Origin: a virus
Lineage: Duplodnaviria; Heunggongvirae; Uroviricota; Caudoviricetes
DNA length: 64,000 nt
Reading direction: 5' to 3' (one strand)
Virus record (IMG/VR): IMGVR_UViG_2648501839_000008
Numbering within the stretch: position 1 is the first letter of the stretch; every line of letters begins with the position of its first letter. The position numbers were made by a program, and so were the translations under genes. Shown here one piece after another: positions 1,950-63,954 of this stretch. Below the pieces are notes generated by a model. That model saw only the letters and a list, made by a program, of their open reading frames with translations. It was not told the origin of the DNA and searched no databases.

Positions 1950-3644
1950 TTAATTATTAAGCAATCTGCTCACACGTAGTTTGTTAAGACTTGATCTAGA
2001 GGCCAGTTTCGTTAATGCACCTATTGCTTTATTCGTGATTTTTTGCTGTTCTTCTGTTAGTTCTTGCATACTTTTGAATCTGAGCAACCCCTTTCTCACT
2101 AAATCCAAAGCATCCTGATTGCGGGATAGTATCCACTTTAAATAATCATCTTCAGAGAAACTGTTAAGATATGCTATGTCACTATGATTAAATTTGCCTT
2201 CAATTATTTTGTATAAAACATTCTCTAAATTAGTCTCTTCAGGCTTCTTATCCATCAATTTTTTTTGAATTAGCAGACCTAACTTTTCGTTACCAAATAT
2301 CTCTACATACAAATTCCGAAAAGCAGTATAAGCATCATCTTGGCTAACAAAGGCATCTGCATATGCCTCTATATAACTATCACAATCAATCTCCAATCTA
2401 TTTAAGATATCAATCAAGCCTATGAAGTGAGCAACAGGTATGTGTGAAAGATTGTCGTTAATTACACATTTTATCTTAGAAATAAACTCAGATTCATTGT
2501 CCTTGAATGAGTCACTAAAAATATCCCAAACATTGTTAACATCACATAAAGCCTTGTGTTCTTTATATTGTTTATTTTTTTCTTCTATTATACCTCGAAT
2601 ATTGCTTTCAGTAGAAAGATAACCATTCTTGAGATAAAAATCTATGTCATCATCGAAAGCAATTTCCGCTCGTTCATAAATAACATCAAGACTATTAATA
2701 AATGAATATACAGAATCATCCTTTTTATCATCTAACATGTAATCAAATACATGTATGTTTTTAATTGATTCTTTAAACAAGGCATAATCAACACCTGGAA
2801 CACCAGAATAGTAAACCACTGAAAACAGAACCAATCTATTGATAAAACTTTCTCTAACCTTATCCTCTGCCAAGCTTAGCTCATTCCTAAGATTAACCAG
2901 AGATGTTTTTATTTTATTTAATATACGGATATTTTTAATGCCTAAGTCATTTGCTAAGACTTTTAACAAAAGAAAATCAGAATCAGTTTCATAAAAAACT
3001 TTACGTAAGTTCTTCTCAGGCGTAGGATCGTATTTTATTTCGACATCAATTACTTTTTCTCTGTACTCTAAAAACTGTTTTTTTGCAGTTTCATCATGTA
3101 AATTATCTTCATTTAAAATTAGAACAACTTTGCAACCTTTTCTTCTTGCTAATTCATCAATTACCCCCATAATTTCTTTAACTTCTAGCGAATTACCTTT
3201 TCTTTCAACATCATCAATACAAACCAAATAATTATTAACAAATTTATACTCAAGAGATGACAGCAGGTTATCTGTTTTGAACCCAAAAAAATCGTTCTTT
3301 CCGAAATGTATTAAAAATTTTGACAAGGAGTTGTATTTCAACCATCCCCAAAACCCATTTCTATAACGAATCATAGTTCGATCCGTTTCAGATAAAATTA
3401 GTTCTTTATATTTCTTTTCATTAATTGGTGTGGCACAATGATAAAGAGCTTTTTTAATATCACCAATAGAGTTAACCCCAAACAAAGAAACATACGAATA
3501 TGCATTAAAATCTAATCCTTCAGAATGCTTAGTATAAAAACTATTCCAATAATGAGTTTTACCAACGCCCCAATCTCCTTTTATGACGGCAACCCGATGA
3601 TCTGAAACTAGAAAATTTTTTAGAAATGATTCTATCGATTCCAT
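1950..3644 (-). CDS. KAP-family P-loop NTPase (candidate defence or abortive-infection protein), AT-rich cargo gene
   Basis: N-terminal Walker A VIKGDWGVGKTH, Walker B-like LVCIDDVERKG about 140 aa later, long helical C-terminal region; AT-rich codon usage unlike neighbours; probable ATG at 3644 with AAAGGA RBS (track start 3653 is TTG). Confidence 0.55.
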   Translation of the reverse strand: MESIESFLKNFLVSDHRVAVIKGDWGVGKTHYWNSFYTKHSEGLDFNAYSYVSLFGVNSIGDIKKALYHCATPINEKKYKELILSETDRTMIRYRNGFWGWLKYNSLSKFLIHFGKNDFFGFKTDNLLSSLEYKFVNNYLVCIDDVERKGNSLEVKEIMGVIDELARRKGCKVVLILNEDNLHDETAKKQFLEYREKVIDVEIKYDPTPEKNLRKVFYETDSDFLLLKVLANDLGIKNIRILNKIKTSLVNLRNELSLAEDKVRESFINRLVLFSVVYYSGVPGVDYALFKESIKNIHVFDYMLDDKKDDSVYSFINSLDVIYERAEIAFDDDIDFYLKNGYLSTESNIRGIIEEKNKQYKEHKALCDVNNVWDIFSDSFKDNESEFISKIKCVINDNLSHIPVAHFIGLIDILNRLEIDCDSYIEAYADAFVSQDDAYTAFRNLYVEIFGNEKLGLLIQKKLMDKKPEETNLENVLYKIIEGKFNHSDIAYLNSFSEDDYLKWILSRNQDALDLVRKGLLRFKSMQELTEEQQKITNKAIGALTKLASRSSLNKLRVSRLLNN

Positions 3645-3695
3645 TAGTATCAATCCTTTAATTCATATATTGGGCGTAACAAACGCCCAATATAA

Positions 3696-4055
3696 TCAAC
3701 CTTTCTTCATCAACTCTCGTTTAATTTCATCGGTACGCATCGTAACGTCGGCAGCTGTGATCGCCTCGTTAAGCTTCACGATGTCCTCGATTTCCTGCGG
3801 TGACTTCTCTGCCAGATGGAAAATGGCTGCTCGAATCACGTCAGAACGAGTGAACTTCTCGAAGCGAGGGATGAACTTCATCATCTCCAGCAGTTCGAAG
3901 TATTCGTCTTCCAGTGACATTGTGCGGCTTTTAATTTTCTCTTTGCCACGAGTCGGGCGTCCCTGTGGTCTGACTGGTTGGCGCAAAGGAGTTGTGTTCT
4001 TAGCCGGTGCATCAGGCTCTTTGCGCTTTGCTAGGTCACCCATTTTCATGGACAT
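3696..4055 (-). CDS. ParG-like ribbon-helix-helix partition protein
   Basis: 119 aa, basic disordered N-terminus plus C-terminal RHH-like segment; start overlaps parA stop (TAATG coupling). Confidence 0.45.
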   Translation of the reverse strand: MSMKMGDLAKRKEPDAPAKNTTPLRQPVRPQGRPTRGKEKIKSRTMSLEDEYFELLEMMKFIPRFEKFTRSDVIRAAIFHLAEKSPQEIEDIVKLNEAITAADVTMRTDEIKRELMKKG

Positions 4056-49825: not shown

Positions 49826-49845
49826 TGCGAACAGAGGTTGCTTAA

Positions 49846-51879
49846 TTACTTAACCTGGTGGCCAGGTTTAGCACCAGCATCCGGGCTTAACAGGAAGATA
49901 TCTTTCCCGCCGGGGCCAGCAGCCATCACCATACCTTCGGAGATGCCGAAGCGCATCTTACGCGGAGCCAGGTTAGCCACCATAATGGTGTGACGACCAA
50001 TCAGTGCCTGTGGGTCTGGATAAGCAGAACGGATGCCTGAGAAGACATTGCGTTTTTCACCGCCGAGATCCAGCGTCAGGCGCAGCAGTTTGTCAGAACC
50101 TTCAACAAACTCTGCGTTTTCGATCAGTGCCACGCGCAGGTCAACTTTGGCAAAGTCGTCAAAGGTGATGGTTTCCTGAATCGGGTCGTCTGCCAGCGGG
50201 CCAGTAACTGGCGCGGCAGTAGCTTTCACTTCTTCTTTAGACGCTTCCACCAATGCTTCCACCTGTTTCATGTCGATACGGTTATACAGTGCTTTGAACG
50301 GATTCACTTTATGGCCCAGCAGCGGTTGCTGGATGCCATCCCAGGTCAGTTCCGTATTCAGGAATGCTTCCGCACGTTCTGTCAGTTTCGGCAGTACCGG
50401 TTTCAGGTAAGTCATCAGCACGCGGAACAGGTTGATGCCCATTGAGCAAATCGCCTGCAGGTCAGCATCGCGACCTTCCTGTTTTGCGACTACCCAAGGA
50501 GCCTGCTCGTCGACATAGCGGTTAGCCAGGTCAGCCAGTGCCATGATTTCACGGATAGCTTTACCAAATTCGCGGCTTTCCCACGCTTCACCAATCACTT
50601 CAGCGGCATCAGTGAAGGTTTTGTACAACTGCGGGTCAGCCAGCTCGCTTGCCAGCACACCGTCAAAACGCTTATTGATAAAGCCAGCGTTACGGGACGC
50701 CAGGTTAACCACTTTGTTCACGATATCGGCATTCACACGCTGAACGAAATCCTCCAGGTTGAGATCGATATCATCAATGCGCGAAGAGAGTTTCGCAGTG
50801 TAGTAGTAACGCAGGCTGTCAGCGTCAAAATGATTCAACCAGGTGCTGGCTTTAATAAAGGTGCCGCGAGACTTGGACATCTTCGCGCCGTTCACCGTCA
50901 CATAGCCGTGAACAAACAGGTTGGTCGGCTTGCGGAAGTTGCTGCCTTCCAGCATGGCAGGCCAGAACAGGCTGTGGAAGTAAACGATATCTTTACCGAT
51001 GAAGTGGTACAGCTCGGCGGTGGAGTCTTTCTTCCAGTATTCATCGAAGCTGGTAGTGTCGCCGCGCTTGTCGCACAGATTCTTGAAGGAACCCATGTAG
51101 CCAATCGGTGCGTCCAGCCAGACGTAGAAATATTTACCCGGCGCGTTCGGAATTTCAAAACCGAAGTAAGGTGCGTCGCGGGAGATATCCCACTGTTGCA
51201 GACCAGATTCAAACCACTCCTGCATTTTGTTTGCCACCTGCTCCTGCAACGCACCGCTGCGGGTCCATGCCTGCAACATTTCGCTGAAAGAGGGCAGATC
51301 AAAGAAGAAGTGTTCAGAATCACGCATTACCGGGGTAGCACCAGAAACCACCGATTTCGGCTCGATCAGTTCAGTCGGGCTGTAGGTCGCGCCGCAAACT
51401 TCACAGTTATCGCCGTATTGATCTGGCGCTTTACATTTCGGGCAGGTGCCTTTCACAAAACGATCCGGCAGGAACATGCCTTTTTCCGGGTCGTACAACT
51501 GAGAGATAGTGCGATTTTTAATAAAACCGTTCTCTTTCAGGCGAGTATAGATAAGCTCAGACAACTGACGGTTCTCTTCGCTGTGCGTCGAGTGATAGTT
51601 GTCATAGCTGATGTTAAAGCCTGCGAAATCAGTCTGGTGTTCCTGACTCATTTCGCCAATCATCTGCTCCGGTGTGATACCAAGTTGCTGTGCTTTCAGC
51701 ATGATCGGCGTACCGTGGGCATCGTCGGCACAGATGAAATTAACCTCGTGGCCGCGCATTCGCTGGTAACGAACCCAGACATCAGCCTGGATGTGCTCCA
51801 GCATATGGCCGAGGTGGATTGAGCCGTTAGCGTACGGCAGCGCGCACGTCACCAGAATTTTCTTCGCGACTTGGGTCAT
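49846..51879 (-). CDS. metG: Methionyl-tRNA synthetase
   Basis: 677-aa translation from [26 protein letters not shown] (HIGH-type motif) through KMSKS to the C-terminal tRNA-binding domain; enterobacterial MetRS; true ATG at 51877-51879 (track ORF extended upstream). Confidence 0.95.
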
Positions 51880-52036
51880 AGTAGGCATTACTTCTTTGTA
51901 GTGAAAAGGGGCTTGATAGTAACAAAATGGCCTTATGTCTGCCATGTGATAACAGCATTTCTCATAAATGATTAAATGTCGCAGCTGGAGTACACTACAA
52001 GGCGACAATTGCGCAAATTAAAATAAAGGAGACGGG

Positions 52037-53137
52037 ATGAGCGAGTCCAAATCGCCGGATGCCCTGAGAGCAATGGTAGCCGGTACGCTGGCTAATTTTC
52101 AGCACCCAACCCTGAAACACAACCTGACTACGCTTAAAGCGTTACACCATGTTGCGTTGATGGATGACACACTGCATGTCGAACTAATCATGCCTTTCGT
52201 GTGGAATAAGCCTTTTGAAGACCTGAAAGAGCAATGTAGTGGTGATCTGCTCCGTATCACTGGCGCAAAGGCTATTGACTGGAAGCTGTCGTACAACATT
52301 GCCACGCTTAAGCGCGTCAAAAACCAACCAGGCATTAATGGTGTTAAGAATATTATCGCCGTAAGCTCAGGCAAGGGCGGTGTAGGCAAATCGTCCACAG
52401 CAGTAAACTTGGCACTGGCTTTGGCTGCTGAAGGTGCGAAAGTTGGTATTTTGGATGCCGATATCTATGGTCCATCAATTCCAACCATGCTGGGCGCGGA
52501 AAACCAACGTCCAACCTCACCTGACGGTACTCACATGGCACCTATCATGTCTCATGGCCTGGCAACCAACTCTATTGGTTATCTGGTCACCGACGACAAT
52601 GCAATGGTGTGGCGTGGACCGATGGCCAGCAAGGCGCTGATGCAGATGTTGCAGGAAACTCTATGGCCTGATCTGGACTATCTCGTTCTCGATATGCCGC
52701 CGGGCACTGGTGATATTCAGTTGACGCTGGCGCAGAACATTCCTGTAACTGGTGCGGTTGTGGTAACTACGCCGCAAGACATCGCGCTGATCGATGCGAA
52801 GAAAGGCATTGTGATGTTCGAAAAAGTCGAAGTGCCGGTACTAGGTATCGTCGAAAACATGAGTGTGCATATTTGCAGTAACTGCGGTCATCACGAGCCA
52901 ATTTTTGGCACCGGTGGCGCACAGAAACTGGCCGAGAAATACAACACGCAGTTGTTAGGCCAAATGCCACTTCATATCTCTCTTCGTGAAGATCTGGATA
53001 ACGGAACACCAACCGTTATTAGTCGTCCAGATAGCGAATTTACGGCTATTTATCGTGACCTCGCAGATCGCGTTGCTGCCCAAATGTATTGGCAAGGTGA
53101 AGTAATACCTGGCGAAATCGCATTCCGCGCAGTGTGA
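52037..53137 (+). CDS. apbC: Fe-S cluster carrier ATPase ApbC/Mrp
   Basis: Deviant Walker A SGKGGVGKSS, CxxC motif ...HICSNCGHH..., divergent from metG as in enterobacterial chromosomes; RBS AAGGAG. Confidence 0.9.
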   Translation: MSESKSPDALRAMVAGTLANFQHPTLKHNLTTLKALHHVALMDDTLHVELIMPFVWNKPFEDLKEQCSGDLLRITGAKAIDWKLSYNIATLKRVKNQPGINGVKNIIAVSSGKGGVGKSSTAVNLALALAAEGAKVGILDADIYGPSIPTMLGAENQRPTSPDGTHMAPIMSHGLATNSIGYLVTDDNAMVWRGPMASKALMQMLQETLWPDLDYLVLDMPPGTGDIQLTLAQNIPVTGAVVVTTPQDIALIDAKKGIVMFEKVEVPVLGIVENMSVHICSNCGHHEPIFGTGGAQKLAEKYNTQLLGQMPLHISLREDLDNGTPTVISRPDSEFTAIYRDLADRVAAQMYWQGEVIPGEIAFRAV

Positions 53138-56745: not shown

Positions 56746-57109
56746 GATTGTCCTTGCGAAGAAGAGCGGCTATGCGCTTACTTCCATCCGAGATAACGCC
56801 CTCGTAATACTCACGCTGCTCGTTGAGTTTTGATTTTGCCAACTCCAGTTGTTTTGTTAGTTCCGCAATACGGCAAACATCGTTGATACGCGTTTCCTCT
56901 AATGCGTTGATCTCATCCAGTAGTGCCAGCACGGTTTCTGGTCCGGCCAGAAATTTGAAGGCGTTGAGGGCATCAATATCAACACCGCTATCTTTAAGTT
57001 CCTGTTCGCTTATCAGATCATCATCAACTGGCAACATTAACAGGCGTTCCATTGCCGGAATTGCACGCTCTGCCGCCTCACGCAGTGCCTGATAGTCAAT
57101 CTTGCTCAC
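56708..57109 (-). CDS. Hypothetical coiled-coil protein (133 aa)
   Basis: ORF track. Confidence 0.35.
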
Positions 57110-57606
57110 TGGATGACTCCTTTACGAAGCTGTTCAGCAATACTTACGCATATCTCTGCGCCTCTAATCAGCCCCGGAACGTTCTTGTTTGGCCCAACTT
57201 CACCATCAACAAAATCAATCATCGCGTTACGAGCCATATCCACGCCCTGCGCACGTACTTCAGCCAGAAAAGCATCGGTGGCTGGAGTCTCCGTTAATTC
57301 GCTAACCCAATTATCTCCGTGTTCCTCGGCACACATCGCATCGAATGCTCGCTCAGATTCTTTCAGGGCTGCATTCTCCGCCGCTAATGCGTCTCTCTGC
57401 GCTCGCAACTTCTCAATTTCGGCAGCCATGTAGTAACCAACCATAGCGAAAGTGGCGAAAGGGTAGTCAGAATCATCAGGAGATACGGAGGCCATTAGCA
57501 GACCATCGTGCATGTTCTGGCTTCCATCAGTGATGGATACCGCATAAGAATCGCTGGTTTCCCGTTTATACAATACGACGACCGGGTTCTTGATTTTCTC
57601 TCTCAT
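57106..57606 (-). CDS. Hypothetical protein (166 aa)
   Basis: ORF track. Confidence 0.35.
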   Translation of the reverse strand: MREKIKNPVVVLYKRETSDSYAVSITDGSQNMHDGLLMASVSPDDSDYPFATFAMVGYYMAAEIEKLRAQRDALAAENAALKESERAFDAMCAEEHGDNWVSELTETPATDAFLAEVRAQGVDMARNAMIDFVDGEVGPNKNVPGLIRGAEICVSIAEQLRKGVIQ

Positions 57607-58160
57607 TACGATGCCTCTAACTTATCTAACTCTTTCAGCCCTTCACGTACCGCGTTCACAATGCGTTCCAGATACTGGTATTTCGGGTTTGGTACCGTTG
57701 GCCAGTCGGCATACCACGGATCATCACCAAAGAGATTCAGCAGTTTGTTACCGACGCCGAAACAACAGCAGCTTTCTTTTACGTCATCGGCGTTTTCCGC
57801 CTCGTCCCACATTTCACGAGCCAGTACGGCGTCGATTTCTCTCTCTCTTCGTAACTTTATGATTTCTGACTTCACGAAAAGCAGATTTGCATCGTTGTCA
57901 TCGTCGACCGTGCTTCGCAGTTGAGAGTCGAAATAGCCGATTAGATACTCGTTGCTGACCCGCTTAATGAACGTCTGCACATCATCACCGCCCATAGCAA
58001 ACCAAGCCGCAGTCCACGCTTTTCCGTAGCAGATGATGGTGATTCTTCCCTTACCAGGTTCGTAGTTTTCAATCATTACTCGAACCGGATCGAGGCGTTC
58101 CAGATCCGTCAGCACAAAGGAAAGAACATCTATTTTTTCGACCTTCATGCAGCCTCCCAC
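57606..58160 (-). CDS. Hypothetical protein (184 aa)
   Basis: ORF track. Confidence 0.35.
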   Translation of the reverse strand: MGGCMKVEKIDVLSFVLTDLERLDPVRVMIENYEPGKGRITIICYGKAWTAAWFAMGGDDVQTFIKRVSNEYLIGYFDSQLRSTVDDDNDANLLFVKSEIIKLRREREIDAVLAREMWDEAENADDVKESCCCFGVGNKLLNLFGDDPWYADWPTVPNPKYQYLERIVNAVREGLKELDKLEAS

Positions 58161-58786
58161 GCGCTCCAGATCAGCGATTTGTGTTTTTCATAACGTTTGA
58201 TGTGTACCGGTTTCAGAAGCGCAATACCTTCAGTGACTTTCGCCATTGCGCTTAATAGCAACGGGTGTTCTATTCCTATCCTCTCCATGTACTCGACAAC
58301 ATCAGCGTTGGCACCAATCTCTTTGCCGTGAAAGAGTACGTCCAGCATCAGTTCTTTCTCTGCGAGGTAGACAGCTGAAAACTCGGGATCGCGACTCACG
58401 ATAGAAGAGGTATTGTCGAGCAGGTCAGCCAGCTTGATCATGCGCGTCTGCATGTCGAGATTTTGCTCCAGCTCCAGGACATTGATGATGAAACGCTGTA
58501 TTCGATTGCCGTCTTCTGGCCTTGCAATGTTGGTCAGAGCCTGAACCATTTCAGCTACGCGCTCACCGAAGTGATCACGAACCATCTCTATGGTTACATG
58601 GGTGTCTTCGACCACATCATGCAGAAGCGCCGCGATTTGCATCTCCACGGTTCCGTCATGCAATGCAACAATCTCTCGGACAGCAACCGGGTGGTTGATG
58701 TAGTCTTCGCCGGTATATTTTCTTTTCTGACCAACGCCACCATGAGCGCCAGCGGCGAACATATGAGCTTCGGAAATACTAGACAT
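58145..58786 (-). CDS. HD-domain hydrolase, SpoT/RelA-hydrolase-like (small alarmone hydrolase candidate)
   Basis: ...HPVAVREIVALHDGTVEMQIAALLHDVVEDT... matches the HD motif arrangement of (p)ppGpp hydrolase domains. Confidence 0.55.
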   Translation of the reverse strand: MSSISEAHMFAAGAHGGVGQKRKYTGEDYINHPVAVREIVALHDGTVEMQIAALLHDVVEDTHVTIEMVRDHFGERVAEMVQALTNIARPEDGNRIQRFIINVLELEQNLDMQTRMIKLADLLDNTSSIVSRDPEFSAVYLAEKELMLDVLFHGKEIGANADVVEYMERIGIEHPLLLSAMAKVTEGIALLKPVHIKRYEKHKSLIWSAWEAA

Positions 58787-58795
58787 TCTTAACTC

Positions 58796-58854
58796 CGTTG
58801 TTTTCTAGTTGTGGTTATTTTCACAAATAAGAAAAGGTAGAAAACAATTTATTT
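58796..58854 (-). promoter_or_regulatory. Class-A sites upstream of the nine-gene early operon
   Basis: ccgttgttttct + gttgtggttattttcac + gaaaacaatttattt. Confidence 0.5.
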
Positions 58855-58905
58855 AAGGCCACAACTTATGGCCTTTATTTATTCATGCCGAAGGATTTGT
58901 AGCGT

Positions 58906-59286
58906 CTAATTGCCGGATAAAATGGGGTGAGGTGCTTGCCAGTAGGCTCCACCGGTCCATGTGAACCCCATGCGAATAAGAGTGTTTATTGCGGCTTTGG
59001 TAGACTCCGATTCGACACTGGCTTTTCGAAACTCTTGAACCTCTTTCGCCAACTTGTATGTAATTGTGCAGGGGACGATTGCAGCCCAGCCTTTCTCATG
59101 ACTGTTAATGACCATCTGGATGTGACCATCCAGAATAGGTTGATTAGGCATGTTATTGAAAATGTCTGCCTGTTTTTGAATGTGAAGAAAAAGCCTTGCC
59201 AGCTCCATTTGCTCACTACGAGACAAGGGATTATCAAGAGGGCTTTTTGCAAAAGCGGCTATACGCTGTGCGTCAATGCCAAACAT
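58906..59286 (-). CDS. Hypothetical protein (126 aa)
   Basis: ORF track. Confidence 0.35.
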   Translation of the reverse strand: MFGIDAQRIAAFAKSPLDNPLSRSEQMELARLFLHIQKQADIFNNMPNQPILDGHIQMVINSHEKGWAAIVPCTITYKLAKEVQEFRKASVESESTKAAINTLIRMGFTWTGGAYWQAPHPILSGN

Positions 59287-59990
59287 CAGCGCACCTCACC
59301 ATCTTTATGGCTGGAGTTAACTTCCGCCATTAAATGTCTGACGTAATCGACAAGAGAGCCACCTGGTGGAATCTGGCATTCCTCAACTAACTGGAAGTAG
59401 ATATCCGCTGCATTACGTGTATTGCTACCCGCACATATTCTTTCTTCCCGAAGTGCATGAAGCTCGTTGATCAAACGGTCACACTCTCCGTTACGCTGAT
59501 CCACAACGGCCTCAAGCTCTGCGACGCGTTCACCTGGCGTCTTACCTTCTTTGCGTTGGATGGTAACGACGAAATCGCCAATTGCAGAGACGTTGTAATC
59601 CAGCTCAAGGTAGTTTTTGGCACCGCTGCGGACGAACTCACCCGCGAACATGGTGGCGAACATCGCAGAGGCCACTTCGCCGTTGAAAAGTGACTCAAGA
59701 TCTAACGGAGTCCCGGCAGCAAGAGCCTCTTTTGCTGTATCCATTGCATCCATGAACCGATCAAACTCACTAGCGCGCTTTTCCAGGTCTTTCCATTGCT
59801 CGCTCCAACGTTTGGCAACGAAGTCTATGAATGTTTTCGCGGATTCATCAAAATTCCCCTCAAACTTAACGATGCCTTTATCAATAATGATCTGGCCTAC
59901 CGCATCCTCTGCATAACCTTTCAATGTAAACTTGAAAGGAAAATCAGAATGGCCTGTGACGTTAAAATGCTCTAACTGGAGGTTGTTCAT
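59286..59990 (-). CDS. Hypothetical protein (234 aa)
   Basis: ORF track. Confidence 0.35.
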   Translation of the reverse strand: MNNLQLEHFNVTGHSDFPFKFTLKGYAEDAVGQIIIDKGIVKFEGNFDESAKTFIDFVAKRWSEQWKDLEKRASEFDRFMDAMDTAKEALAAGTPLDLESLFNGEVASAMFATMFAGEFVRSGAKNYLELDYNVSAIGDFVVTIQRKEGKTPGERVAELEAVVDQRNGECDRLINELHALREERICAGSNTRNAADIYFQLVEECQIPPGGSLVDYVRHLMAEVNSSHKDGEVR

Positions 59991-60032: not shown

Positions 60033-60053
60033 TTAAGTAAGTATTTACCTATC
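60033..60053 (-). promoter_or_regulatory. Class-B palindromic site
   Basis: ttaagtaagtatttacctatc. Confidence 0.4.
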
Positions 60054-61737
60054 ATTTAACGCGTTTGAAAACGTATACGCTGACTGTGATCCCTGTGTCT
60101 TCAAACTCGTTGGTAAACGACTTCCCTCTGGCATAAACGTAATTATCCATCGTCATCCAGTCCAGTATTGGCGCAGTGCCCGGCAATACTGCTACAAGAC
60201 GCCCGCCGACTTTCAGATGCCCCAGCGCAGCCATCGTGTGCTCTCTATGACGACCAAGCGAGTACGGCGGGTTCATAACGATTTTGTCGAACTGATAACC
60301 TGCGTTGTCCTCAGACCACTTTATGAAGTCGCAGCAAATCGTGTTCGTATACCCTTTTCCACGCAGGATATCAGCGAAGAGAGGTGCGATTTCTATGCAG
60401 GTAACATCTTCCAGATCGGCGTTAATATAGGCCAGAAGATCCCCACGTCCGGCTTGAGGCTCCAGCAGCTTCTCACCAGACTTCAATTCAGTGGCTCTGG
60501 CAACGTACTCAGCAATCAAGCGTGGGGTAGGGTAGAACTGGTGTGATTTAGTATCCGGTATTAAACCGGTAGCCACAATCGTATTTAGCGTATGGCCGAT
60601 GTCATACGGGAACTGCCAGTGCTTTTTCTCCTGCACGCCGCCAATGAAGCTCAGTGTGCGCTCAAGCTCTTCCACCTGCGACTTCTGGAGAGCTGAATCA
60701 GAGAAGTACCATACGCCTTTGTCTTTGCTCAATCGCCCGTCACGAAGCGCAGTGCGAACCGGCACAGAGATCGTCTTCTGGATTAACCCGAACTGCTTTG
60801 GTGCCCGTGTTTTTGGCGCAGTTCGGCATGGCGCGGGGATTGCAGCAGGCATACTGTAAGCCAGCACCTCATTCAACTTCCAGGCCACGTCAGGATGTAT
60901 TTCAAAGTGAACGTTGCCGTTCTTGAACATCTTCACGCGCATCAGATTTCCATCGACGTTCATCCAGTCACCGGTCTGGCAGTCGTTTGCCCTATACGCA
61001 GCTGATAGCACCTCAGCAGTGCGGTTGATGGTAATAAATTCTTTGTGCGCGAAGAAATGAAGCAAGACACGCAGATCGTCGATGTAGTCCTCTTTGCGAT
61101 AGTTCACGCTAACGCTGTCCCGCCAGAAATCAGAAATGCAGTCAGCGATTATCAGCCGCTCGCTGAAACCGTTTGTCTTATTTGTCTTGTGCGCAGGACT
61201 CAGCGCCTTAAACAAGCCATACACGCGCTCAGAGAGATATTTGTGCCTGTCATTCAGCAAATTAAGCATCGTGGGTATGACCGTTTCTGCTTTGAACTCC
61301 GGTACACCAACGAACTCTTTAACCTTCATCTGGTAGCCGGTTCTGTCAGTTTTGATGACTTCCTGTTTGCCCTCTATAAACTGCTCGCGCCACTCATCTC
61401 GACGGGAAGCTGGCATGATCAGCAAAACGTTAGTCATGTCCGTGACCTTCCTCCAGTACTCGGCCCAAATATTCTGTTTCACCCATTCCAGATCGACTTT
61501 ATCCAACCAACCTCGATTTAAACGCGAGCGATCTTCATCTGGTCGATGGTTTAGTCTCAGCAGGCGATTAATCATGTTGTGGCGTTCGTCGCCATAAACG
61601 AAGTCGTGTACCTGATACATGAAGGCGATCTCTTTCTCGCACTCGGCCACGATTTCGTGGATGACATTCATTTCCTGACGATAGTCGATAGCCGTGTTTG
61701 AGCTGGCATCGTCGATGATAGAAAGGGCTGTATTCAT
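60052..61737 (-). CDS. N6-adenine DNA methyltransferase with large N-terminal domain
   Basis: Motif I-like LEPQAGRGDLL and motif IV NPPY in the C-terminal about 200 aa; 561 aa. Confidence 0.65.
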   Translation of the reverse strand: MNTALSIIDDASSNTAIDYRQEMNVIHEIVAECEKEIAFMYQVHDFVYGDERHNMINRLLRLNHRPDEDRSRLNRGWLDKVDLEWVKQNIWAEYWRKVTDMTNVLLIMPASRRDEWREQFIEGKQEVIKTDRTGYQMKVKEFVGVPEFKAETVIPTMLNLLNDRHKYLSERVYGLFKALSPAHKTNKTNGFSERLIIADCISDFWRDSVSVNYRKEDYIDDLRVLLHFFAHKEFITINRTAEVLSAAYRANDCQTGDWMNVDGNLMRVKMFKNGNVHFEIHPDVAWKLNEVLAYSMPAAIPAPCRTAPKTRAPKQFGLIQKTISVPVRTALRDGRLSKDKGVWYFSDSALQKSQVEELERTLSFIGGVQEKKHWQFPYDIGHTLNTIVATGLIPDTKSHQFYPTPRLIAEYVARATELKSGEKLLEPQAGRGDLLAYINADLEDVTCIEIAPLFADILRGKGYTNTICCDFIKWSEDNAGYQFDKIVMNPPYSLGRHREHTMAALGHLKVGGRLVAVLPGTAPILDWMTMDNYVYARGKSFTNEFEDTGITVSVYVFKRVK

Positions 61738-61839: not shown

Positions 61840-61861
61840 AAAAATGGGGGCTTTCGCCCCC
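61840..61861 (-). terminator. Rho-independent terminator (minus strand)
   Basis: GGGGGCGAAAGCCCCC followed by ATTTTT on the minus strand. Confidence 0.6.
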
Positions 61862-61878: not shown

Positions 61879-62445
61879 TTAGAGTGCGTATTGCGTTTTG
61901 TGCGGCTGCTTATTCAAGTCATGGCGATGCGTGAGCTCCCGCATCATGTCTTCAAGGCGACTCTTTGTGTCGTCGAGCTGGTCGGCCATTGCACCTAAAA
62001 GCTGGCGAACGGCCATCGGATCGTCGCTGTTTAGTGATGGCATTTTATAACCTGCTTTAGAAGACATAAGGTTGATTGCAGACATCAACATCGTTAGAGA
62101 GGATTTAAGCCCGGCAATTTCACGATCTTTGCTGGCAATAATCGTCTCACTTTTGTTACCGTCATCAGTTCCTTGAGTCTCGCTCACCATATCCAAAGTC
62201 GCTTGCAACTTATCAGCTCTCTCTTTTTCAGCAAGGTAATGAACACCGAAATGGTGTGCCAAAGCTACAATCTGAGTTGGCTCTTCAAAGGTGGAATTAA
62301 AATTAAGTATTGTAAACAGTCTCTCAAATATGGAAACGTCTTCTATTCCTCGAAGAATGGATAACATTTTGACAAGTTCATTAGCATCCATTTCTTCGAA
62401 TAGGGCGTTTTGTTCATCAGCTATTGCTTTGCATTTCTCGCACAT
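61879..62445 (-). CDS. Hypothetical protein (188 aa)
   Basis: ORF track. Confidence 0.35.
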   Translation of the reverse strand: MCEKCKAIADEQNALFEEMDANELVKMLSILRGIEDVSIFERLFTILNFNSTFEEPTQIVALAHHFGVHYLAEKERADKLQATLDMVSETQGTDDGNKSETIIASKDREIAGLKSSLTMLMSAINLMSSKAGYKMPSLNSDDPMAVRQLLGAMADQLDDTKSRLEDMMRELTHRHDLNKQPHKTQYAL

Positions 62446-62463
62446 GTGTTTTCCTTAATGCTT

Positions 62464-62499
62464 AAACAAGTTGTTTTCTTATTGGTTTTATTGTGATGT
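62464..62499 (-). promoter_or_regulatory. Class-A site
   Basis: aaacaagttgttttct + ttggttttattgtgatg. Confidence 0.5.
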
Positions 62500-62584
62500 G
62501 GCATATAAGGGGAGCAAGCTAAACGTAAAGGTGCAAACTCTCTATTTCGGTCAACGAAACACAAGGGCCAAATGGCCCTTGTCA

Positions 62585-62743
62585 TTAACACTTTGCTTTA
62601 CGAACTAACGGATAAGCGAAGTAGATCGCCAAACCAATGAGGACGCCATCAGAAATGACAGACATCATCTTTCCCGTAAAATCCACCAACACCGCCATCA
62701 CCAGAAGAGCAATGACGATCACAAGCCGGAATCTCTCAAGCAT
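62585..62743 (-). CDS. Small hydrophobic peptide (52 aa, two predicted TM segments), not in the ORF track
   Basis: Hand translation MLERFRLVIVIALLVMAVLVDFTGKMMSVISDGVLIGLAIYFAYPLVRKAKC; ATG overlaps the TerB-like stop (TAATG). Confidence 0.35.
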   Translation of the reverse strand: MLERFRLVIVIALLVMAVLVDFTGKMMSVISDGVLIGLAIYFAYPLVRKAKC

Positions 62744-63168
62744 TAGAGATAAGCATCCAGTGACAACTGAAGCGCCTGGGCGATCTTTTTCAGTGCCTGC
62801 TCTTCTTGTTCACCAATGCCGTCCTGATCGGCAATATCAAGGCACAGACACAGAACATCGACCGCCTCTGGAGTACCCGCAATATCAGACAGCTCACGAA
62901 TAGCCTGTGCATTAGCAGAACGAGGGGACGCTTCGTAACGAGCACGGATATTGGCGCTCATTTGGGCAATTTCACCAGCAAACGGAGAAAACGCAGGCAG
63001 AGCTGCAATTGTCTTCTCAAGAATGGCAATTTCTTTTGCGTCACATGTGCCGTCGGCATAGGAGATCATGTACGCGCCCCACACGGTGGCCTCAACCGCA
63101 TCACGGTTCTCCATTTTTTTGACTTCGATAACTGCTTTACGAGTTTTCTTTTTGAAGAAACCTAACAT
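62743..63168 (-). CDS. TerB-like domain protein
   Basis: 141 aa with TerB-like paired acidic helices (...YADGTCDAKEIAILE... and ...DIADQDGIGEQEEQALKKIAQ...). Confidence 0.45.
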   Translation of the reverse strand: MLGFFKKKTRKAVIEVKKMENRDAVEATVWGAYMISYADGTCDAKEIAILEKTIAALPAFSPFAGEIAQMSANIRARYEASPRSANAQAIRELSDIAGTPEAVDVLCLCLDIADQDGIGEQEEQALKKIAQALQLSLDAYL

Positions 63169-63191
63169 GTGTTTTCCTTTTGTTATTTGTC

Positions 63192-63208
63192 AAAACAAGT
63201 TGTTTTCT
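63192..63208 (-). promoter_or_regulatory. Class-A site
   Basis: aaaacaagttgttttct. Confidence 0.5.
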
Positions 63209-63261
63209 AGTTAAATAAATTGCTTACGCAAAGACGGTCAATGCATATGCACTAACAACCG

Positions 63262-63450
63262 TCAGAAATAACCAAGTACCGAACCGACTGGAAAAATAAA
63301 AATCCCAACTACACGAGCCAAGGTCATGCCAGCCTGAAACTGGAGATCGCCAGAGCAAACAAGTTTTATAATGTTCGATACCCAACCGGCGGCCATGAGG
63401 GCAAGAATTGCCAGCCAAATTTTTCCAAAGTGATTTGAAAACCAGTTCAT
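63262..63450 (-). CDS. Small membrane protein (62 aa)
   Basis: ORF track; two hydrophobic segments. Confidence 0.35.
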   Translation of the reverse strand: MNWFSNHFGKIWLAILALMAAGWVSNIIKLVCSGDLQFQAGMTLARVVGIFIFPVGSVLGYF

Positions 63451-63698
63451 ACAACCGCCTTAGTCACAGCATGATCCTGAGTAACTGGATGAACTTGAGG
63501 TATCGCATCCACCGCCATCCCATCCAGAGTGACAGGACGCTCCACTGGAGTGGTGGTAATTGTCGTCGACGAAGGTGTGGTGATGGATGAATCCGGCATC
63601 AAAAGGCTCTGACCGGCTGGAACGGCTACCGTCGCCAGTGAAACTATAATGAGAACGTAGGCCATTGGTTTCAGCCTCTTTCTTTGAAAATTTTCCAT
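63447..63698 (-). CDS. Small secreted/Thr-rich protein (frame uncertain)
   Basis: ORF track; coupled (ATGA) to the downstream gene; overlaps 63460-63954 in another frame. Confidence 0.25.
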   Translation of the reverse strand: MENFQRKRLKPMAYVLIIVSLATVAVPAGQSLLMPDSSITTPSSTTITTTPVERPVTLDGMAVDAIPQVHPVTQDHAVTKAVV

Positions 63699-63954
63699 TC
63701 GAACTGTCCTTGTTGTTTTTCTCCTTCACTAAAGGCCGTGCATTTTTCGCTTCGCGTGAAGAACCAGAGGCAACAATCGCCCCCACGTTCGCAACAACTG
63801 ACGCTTGATTATCTAAACGTTCATTCAGCAACCGAACGGTAGTCTCTAGTTCATCAAGACGTGACATAACACGACCGCTAAATAATTCGGCCAAAATTTG
63901 ACGTAAAGAACGAGGACGTTTAGTTACAGAAGTGAAATAGGTTTGACGTGCCAT
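63460..63954 (-). CDS. Hypothetical protein (frame conflict with 63447-63698 over the 3' half)
   Basis: ORF track; the N-terminal about 85 codons are unique to this frame. Confidence 0.3.
   Translation of the reverse strand: MARQTYFTSVTKRPRSLRQILAELFSGRVMSRLDELETTVRLLNERLDNQASVVANVGAIVASGSSREAKNARPLVKEKNNKDSSNGKFSKKEAETNGLRSHYSFTGDGSRSSRSEPFDAGFIHHHTFVDDNYHHSSGASCHSGWDGGGCDTSSSSSYSGSCCD

Follow-up and report, generated by a model that had tools for sequence, protein, structure and literature searches.

The window analysed here, a 64,000-nucleotide stretch of a Caudoviricetes virus (IMG/VR record IMGVR_UViG_2648501839_000008), carries at positions 60052-61737 of its minus strand a gene for a 561-residue protein in which a DUF4942 region is fused to an adenine methyltransferase module. 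Comparison of related proteins indicates that the C-terminal cassette of this protein (residues ~305-561) occurs as deeply diverged alleles, which are exchanged as a unit by recombination between otherwise similar phage-plasmids. The protein itself is probably an orphan N6-adenine DNA methyltransferase that lowers restriction in new hosts by modifying the DNA of the element. Taken separately, the assignment as a DNA N6-methyladenine (m6A) methyltransferase is likelier than this combined statement, and the anti-restriction role alone is about an even call. Both gene and family are already catalogued (as Pfam DUF4942, PHROG 6263 and SSU5 gp95, 'putative DNA modification methylase'), and an orphan phage methyltransferase would in itself be no surprise to a specialist; the cassette exchange is the one new observation here.

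The gene is an intact, ATG-started open reading frame (ORF) of 561 codons plus stop, and at the 46.5% G+C of the window the chance of 561 stop-free codons is ~7e-14. The ORF list, the annotation of plasmids pECOH89 and pAVS0225-A and a PHROG match all describe a complete coding sequence, orthologous to gp95 of Salmonella phage SSU5; PHROG 6263 ('DNA methyltransferase') is matched over the full length (residues 1-561 against positions 1-548 of 548, E 6e-300). At the nucleotide level, the gene is 99.9% identical to its counterparts in pECOH89 (NC_023916) and pAVS0225-A. Its identity is 97.7-98.9% to four records of Escherichia phages and 89.5% to SSU5_095 of SSU5, and it shows no structural difference from the SSU5, pECOH89 and pHCM2 orthologues. 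These identities show that the window is part of an SSU5/pHCM2-type phage-plasmid. The element encodes tail, capsid, portal, terminase and ParB-like genes as well as metG and apbC; after these comes a long stretch of accessory and DNA-metabolism genes on the minus strand, among them the methyltransferase gene.

The C-terminal module (residues 397-561; 60055-60549, minus strand, as are all coordinates within the gene) has the class I Rossmann methyltransferase fold. Its TP motif QFYPTP with the associated helix (residues 400-405; 60523-60540), motif I EPQAGRGDLL, the loop binding S-adenosylmethionine (SAM) (residues 426-435; 60433-60462), and motif IV, the catalytic tetrapeptide NPPY (residues 489-492; 60262-60273), follow each other in an order that is conserved throughout the family and aligns to M.TaqI, where the corresponding stretches read LEPACAHG for motif I and NPPY for motif IV. 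Residues Q400, Y402, P403 and T404 of the TP motif and N489, P490 and P491 of motif IV are at least 90% conserved, and L425, E426, P427, A429, G430 and G432 are conserved at motif I. Iyer et al. describe the TP motif and helix, motif I and NPP(Y/F) as the signature of the EcoKI/TaqI-like clade that mobile elements employ (PMC5512222). In a search with a profile built from 27 family members, M.TaqI is the best-matching relative of solved structure (E 6e-4), and the adenine-specific DNA methyltransferase 7vru and EcoR124II HsdM match as well. For the protein itself, PADLOC returns mad2 (E 1.5e-14) together with several models of Type II methyltransferases.

The chain ends at residue 561, right after strand 7, the last strand of the core, and family members of 500-580 residues end likewise. 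Because the protein stops directly at this point, a C-terminal recognition domain is absent, and the module is best described as a minimal gamma-type N6-adenine DNA methyltransferase lacking such a domain. In contrast, M.TaqI, M.BseCI and CamA, all of the gamma class, have a large C-terminal recognition domain, whereas the protein studied here has a 395-residue N-terminal extension without known fold. With so reduced a module, DNA binding would have to be provided by the regions that precede it.

Modelled alone with AlphaFold2, the N-terminal 395 residues give a confident prediction, with a predicted local distance difference test (pLDDT) score of 82.2, and separate into three pieces. Residues 1-88 (61474-61737) form a poorly conserved, acidic (isoelectric point (pI) 5.05) and mostly helical segment, with helices predicted over residues 15-62 and low pLDDT at residues 1-17. 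The mixed alpha/beta core (residues 89-310; 60808-61473) is conserved and has no recognisable fold; it contains the match to Pfam DUF4942 (PF13708; residues 140-295, 74 bits against a gathering cut-off of 25), a family that 27 of 27 aligned family members match as well. Its conserved motifs are HKTNK (residues 183-187), DDLR (220-223), VDGN (261-264) and HFEIHPD (277-283). Residues 311-396 (60550-60807) make up a small, variable and basic (pI 9.5) subdomain, alpha/beta in its predicted secondary structure. Searched against solved and viral folds, the 395-residue model gave no match.

A first-pass annotation, made from the DNA letters alone, had anticipated much of this layout. The ORF span it gave is exactly that of the complete gene, and the two motifs it named, EPQAGRGDLL and NPPY, are indeed found in the C-terminal part; the methyltransferase fold is shorter than the proposed 200 residues or so (~165). 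The N-terminal part, listed as about 350 unassigned residues for which a domain search was suggested, is in fact ~395 residues long and is covered in part by DUF4942.

The distribution of conserved positions along the protein offers a first view of how its parts evolve. Positions conserved to at least 90% were counted in 155 representatives that are only 32-46% identical overall. The DUF4942 core holds 38 such near-invariant positions and the methyltransferase (residues 397-561) 25, against 4 in the subdomain and a single one in the N-terminal segment. The invariant polar residues of the core include H183, T185, N186, D221, R223, D262, H277, E279, N289 and R305.

A different picture emerges from the comparison of close relatives. 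The window protein and a Klebsiella-type protein, P0080, share 78% identity in the core, 51% in the subdomain and 48% in the methyltransferase. In the core, a third protein, P0044, has 95% identity to the window protein; to P0080 it is 100% identical over residues 311-396 and 99% over residues 397-561, as against 77% in the core and 58% over residues 1-88. The same mosaic is displayed by P0046, from a 17-member cluster that includes a 109-kb contig. P0044 and P0046 hence join an E. coli-type N-terminus to a P0080-type C-terminus, indicating that the cassette is swapped as a unit. The crossover falls in the conserved HPDVAWKLNEVLA...AIPA stretch, and PHROG 9133, a profile of 1259 residues, matches residues 328-560 as one block. 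Across SSU5-type elements, the core stays 76-96% identical and the C-terminal cassette falls to ~50%.

These observations bear directly on where a sequence preference might reside. If there is one, it would lie in the C-terminal cassette, with the subdomain at residues 311-396 as the best candidate. The first-pass annotation had instead suggested that the N-terminal domain may set target specificity, which amounts to a model in which the first ~350-395 residues are the target-recognition domain and the C-terminal module is a generic catalytic unit. We consider this unlikely. Specificity domains normally vary between specificities, yet the DUF4942 core is richer in near-invariant positions than the catalytic domain, and in SSU5-type elements it stays conserved while the cassette diverges and recombines. 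Moreover, the same methyltransferase module occurs without DUF4942, both as a stand-alone protein in IncF plasmids and as part of giant proteins of phages. The earlier interpretation is thus supported in part, and its assignment of specificity to the N-terminus is the part that is not favoured.

The module relatives also support an anti-restriction function, as homologous modules in IncF plasmids and in DarB-like and PLxRFG proteins are associated with anti-restriction. The leading region of IncF plasmids encodes a 187-residue methyltransferase (WP_001311069; 'Adenine-specific DNA methylase' in UniRef) that is homologous over its full length to residues 398-554 (hhalign 99.6%, E 3e-24). It is likewise an orphan of mobile elements and sits between a klcA-type anti-restriction gene and ssb/psiB. 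Unlike the window protein, it stands alone without DUF4942; in the literature searched it is equally uncharacterised, and its 90%-identity cluster counts 5,718 members. On the IncF plasmid pDM0133 (leading region, locus L004 3750-5720), a 453-residue DUF3560 gene directly precedes this methyltransferase, and the pair is very widespread. The possibility that the DUF3560 protein is the N-terminus of the window protein in split form was rejected, the hhalign probability being 0.2% and DUF3560 being unrelated to DUF4942.

The module also aligns to residues 81-228 of DarB of phage P1 (hhalign 94.8%, E 5e-8). Protein-against-translated-nucleotide searches (tblastn) place matches to it inside giant proteins of many phages, named 'DarB-like antirestriction', 'PLxRFG' or 'structural', and it matches PHROG profiles of 1,400-3,900 residues. 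The DarB-like methyltransferase-helicase dyad and the window protein have the TP and NPP(Y/F) clade signature in common (PMC5512222). In other respects the two differ: the dyad has a C-terminal SF2/SNF2 helicase, whereas in the window protein nothing follows the methyltransferase core and no helicase family is matched, and the protein measures 561 residues against more than 2,000 for DarB-like proteins. The LPD36 domain at the N-terminus of DarB-like proteins is a four-helix unit with GxGU, whereas residues 311-396 here are predicted as alpha/beta with FIGGV, a comparison made with the published description of LPD36 only (PMC5512222). Since the gene lies outside the structural module, packaging of the protein into virions is not indicated.

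Another group of orphan plasmid enzymes offers an analogy of function only. M.EcoGIX and M.BceJIII are single-strand-specific m6A enzymes that guard incoming DNA against restriction (PMC7736820). The name 'YdiA' and the analogy with the leading region led us to consider membership in the M.EcoGIX family, which was rejected: M.EcoGIX is a beta-class enzyme with DPPY and another order of motifs, whereas here motif I precedes NPPY. The two enzymes belong to another family, and neither their preference for single strands nor their SAY motif is transferable to the window protein.

The wider DUF4942 family conforms to the same pattern of orphan genes. An exhaustive search yields 366 clusters (50% identity) at E<1e-30, and the best 150 of these 366 contain proteins mostly of 500-580 residues, matching from about residue 80-145 to the C-terminus. 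Because this architecture is constant among the 150 best clusters, the fusion of DUF4942 and methyltransferase is judged to be old and stable. Full-length relatives (~31% identity) are found on IncHI2 conjugative plasmids, adjoining a Dam gene, and others in early-right operons of lambdoid prophages, in Variovorax and in an Enterobacterales genome, where their immediate neighbours include other orphan methyltransferases, of the N6_N4 and C5 types. The phage-plasmid, IncHI2 and prophage contexts compared have no shared neighbour and no nuclease among the neighbours. In the contexts examined, the family genes are always without a restriction partner and often lie beside other orphan methyltransferases in early regions.

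Within SSU5-type elements, the gene is very common. The identical protein is public on 191 contigs, its 90%-identity cluster has 1,384 members, and the only public names are 'DUF4942 domain-containing protein' and 'DNA modification methylase'. Megablast detects the gene in 560 PLSDB plasmids. It is present in 205 Escherichia, 45 Salmonella, 81 Enterobacter and 24 Citrobacter plasmids, as against 205, 49, 90 and 25 plasmids with the SSU5-type portal gene, and these nearly equal counts make it close to core in the four genera. Its counts are lower in Klebsiella (190, against 307 for the portal gene) and Yersinia (0 against 62), with sequence divergence at least part of the cause.

We hypothesize that the enzyme would use SAM to methylate adenines in the DNA of the element and, incidentally, in that of the host, and that this methylation would lower restriction cleavage on transfer to a new host or during replication there. 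Sequence preference would come from the swappable cassette, that is, from the basic subdomain at residues 311-396 together with loops of the methyltransferase, and the invariant DUF4942 core might provide a family-wide function, e.g., generic clamping of DNA or docking. A bolder version of this proposal, to which we give little credence at present, takes the DUF4942 core as a new conserved module, docking or clamping onto replicating or entering DNA or carrying a second activity, and residues ~305-561 as a compact unit of specificity plus catalysis, the whole serving phage-plasmids, IncHI2 plasmids and prophages as a factor against restriction. If this were true, the protein would define a new architectural class of mobile-element DNA methyltransferase.

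Several observations weigh against the assignment as an anti-restriction DNA methyltransferase. The Pfam family N6_Mtase (PF02384) scores 13.8 bits against a cut-off of 20.4 for the window protein, with 8 of 27 relatives matching at E down to 8e-6, and the top structural neighbour is METTL5, an m6A enzyme of ribosomal RNA (rRNA). Divergence of the cassette may reflect pressures other than target specificity. Surveys based on DefenseFinder report Rad, an anti-retron system, as the sole entry for SSU5-group elements, which leaves this gene off their lists of anti-defence systems. Protection could already come from a Dam-like methyltransferase that the element also encodes, and many orphan methyltransferases of plasmids and prophages are silent in laboratory growth (PMC7736820, PMC4659465). 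In the literature searched, we found neither methylation data for any family member nor functional data on DUF4942 or on SSU5 or pHCM2 methylation.

The consequences depend on which of these possibilities holds. An anti-restriction methyltransferase that is near-universal in SSU5-type elements would help to explain their host range, and the catalogue of anti-defence systems would gain a family that counts at least 366 clusters (50% identity). With small methyltransferases (~165-250 residues) and naturally exchanged cassettes, the family could also help the study of minimal DNA-reading enzymes. Were the enzyme silent, or redundant with the neighbouring Dam-like gene, it would be an ordinary orphan methyltransferase. 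The elements themselves are frequent among clinical isolates of E. coli, Salmonella, Shigella and Klebsiella, and their cargo includes resistance genes, e.g., CTX-M-15.

Methylation might also serve regulation instead of restriction evasion, with the enzyme steering replication, packaging or the switch between plasmid and lytic states, as Dam sites do in P1. The near-core retention in E. coli and Salmonella plasmids of the SSU5 type would fit such a housekeeping role for the element. The gene also lies among replication and nucleotide-metabolism genes in a long block that is encoded on one strand. Regulatory Dam sites are annotated in P1, and plasmid methyltransferases can play regulatory roles (PMC11602122). 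However, if the regulatory target were fixed, the specificity module should be stable, yet the cassette is replaced by ~50%-identical alleles between close elements. The family is also found in unrelated elements with other regulation (IncHI2 plasmids, lambdoid prophages), and the relatives of the catalytic module lie in anti-restriction settings. We regard a regulatory role as improbable.

The structural resemblance to METTL5 raises the question of whether the substrate is DNA at all. An RNA methyltransferase (m6A or N2-methylguanine in rRNA or transfer RNA) or a protein methyltransferase (glutamine-N5), acting on the translation machinery of the host, is very unlikely. Models of RNA methyltransferases (the KsgA, Erm and METTL5 equivalogs) score 12-18 bits against cut-offs of 171-350, and the resemblance to METTL5, KsgA and Erm is at the level of the fold only. 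DNA enzymes rank first in the sequence profiles, PADLOC returns Type II methyltransferase models, the TP motif with its helix is a hallmark of the EcoKI/TaqI-like DNA enzymes (PMC5512222), and the prophage copies sit beside other DNA methyltransferases.

A fused restriction-modification enzyme of the Type IIG kind, with the core and its invariant D221, D262, H277 and E279 as a divergent nuclease, has next to no probability. In its favour, Type IIG enzymes have a similar arrangement, in which an N-terminal domain and a linker precede a gamma-type methyltransferase; a number of the invariant acidic and histidine residues are located on a meander of three strands with a helix after it; and PADLOC gives a weak REase_MTase_IIG match (E 0.0011). 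This match is confined to residues 456-521 of the methyltransferase, however, family and structure searches revealed no nuclease fold or family (PD-(D/E)xK or other), and the C-terminal recognition domain is absent.

The surroundings of the gene agree with the orphan status favoured here. The absence of a nearby restriction partner, as proposed from the letters alone, holds: the annotation of the 99.9%-identical reference plasmid contains no restriction endonuclease across the entire span of the window, and the eight neighbouring ORFs (57106-59990 and 61879-63954) give zero PADLOC matches, their only Pfam matches being HD_4, TerB, Ead/Ea22 and a ClpX zinc finger. A second orphan, the Dam-like enzyme mentioned above, is encoded on the same strand ~4 kb upstream, just past the end of the window. 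This 'phage N-6-adenine-methyltransferase' of 197 residues lies at 95796-96389 of pAVS0225-A (locus L001 7453-8046) and corresponds to SSU5_088 in SSU5. Its presence would confound a comparison of methylomes between a carrier and a cured strain.

Between the methyltransferase gene and its upstream neighbour, a consensus scan predicts a terminator-like GC hairpin with T-run (61846-61861, minus strand), which is identical in phage SSU5. Because it separates the two genes, the methyltransferase gene might begin a transcription unit of its own. The consensus promoter scan of the upstream intergenic region found no sigma-70 site; an extended -10-like TGcGATAAT is visible by eye at 61784-61776 and reads GAAAAT in SSU5, too weak to be claimed as a promoter.

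Just upstream of this putative unit lie, on the minus strand, genes for a TerB-domain protein ('tellurite/colicin resistance'; 62743-63168) and a small DUF3927 membrane protein (62585-62743). Two genes downstream of the methyltransferase, at 58145-58786 (minus strand), is the gene of a 213-residue HD_4/HD-domain protein (Pfam E 3e-17). As the HD_4 family includes the RelA/SpoT-type hydrolase domain, this protein could be a nucleotide-signal hydrolase.

Matches limited to residues 1-68 on Klebsiella plasmids were considered as an independent domain, which was rejected, the one record examined containing a truncated remnant ORF. This ORF of 71 residues (locus L011 5001-5216), 65% identical to residues 1-68, is located on the 344-kb IncFIB plasmid OW968194.1 of K. 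pneumoniae, directly beside a Type I restriction R-subunit gene. The two other Klebsiella plasmids listed, H67 and H86, have comparable short matches, to residues 1-62 and 1-43.

Two further features of the window concern its accessory content. The full-length methionyl-tRNA synthetase gene metG and the gene of an ApbC-type iron-sulfur carrier, at ~49843-53134 of the window (79947-83238 of pAVS0225-A), adjoin a gene for an S24 (LexA-like) peptidase and are unusual cargo for a phage. At positions 2001-4000, the G+C content falls sharply to 33.5%, compared with ~47% elsewhere; this dip overlaps with the gene of a DUF2971 protein and with small hypothetical genes, and the segment was probably acquired recently as accessory DNA.

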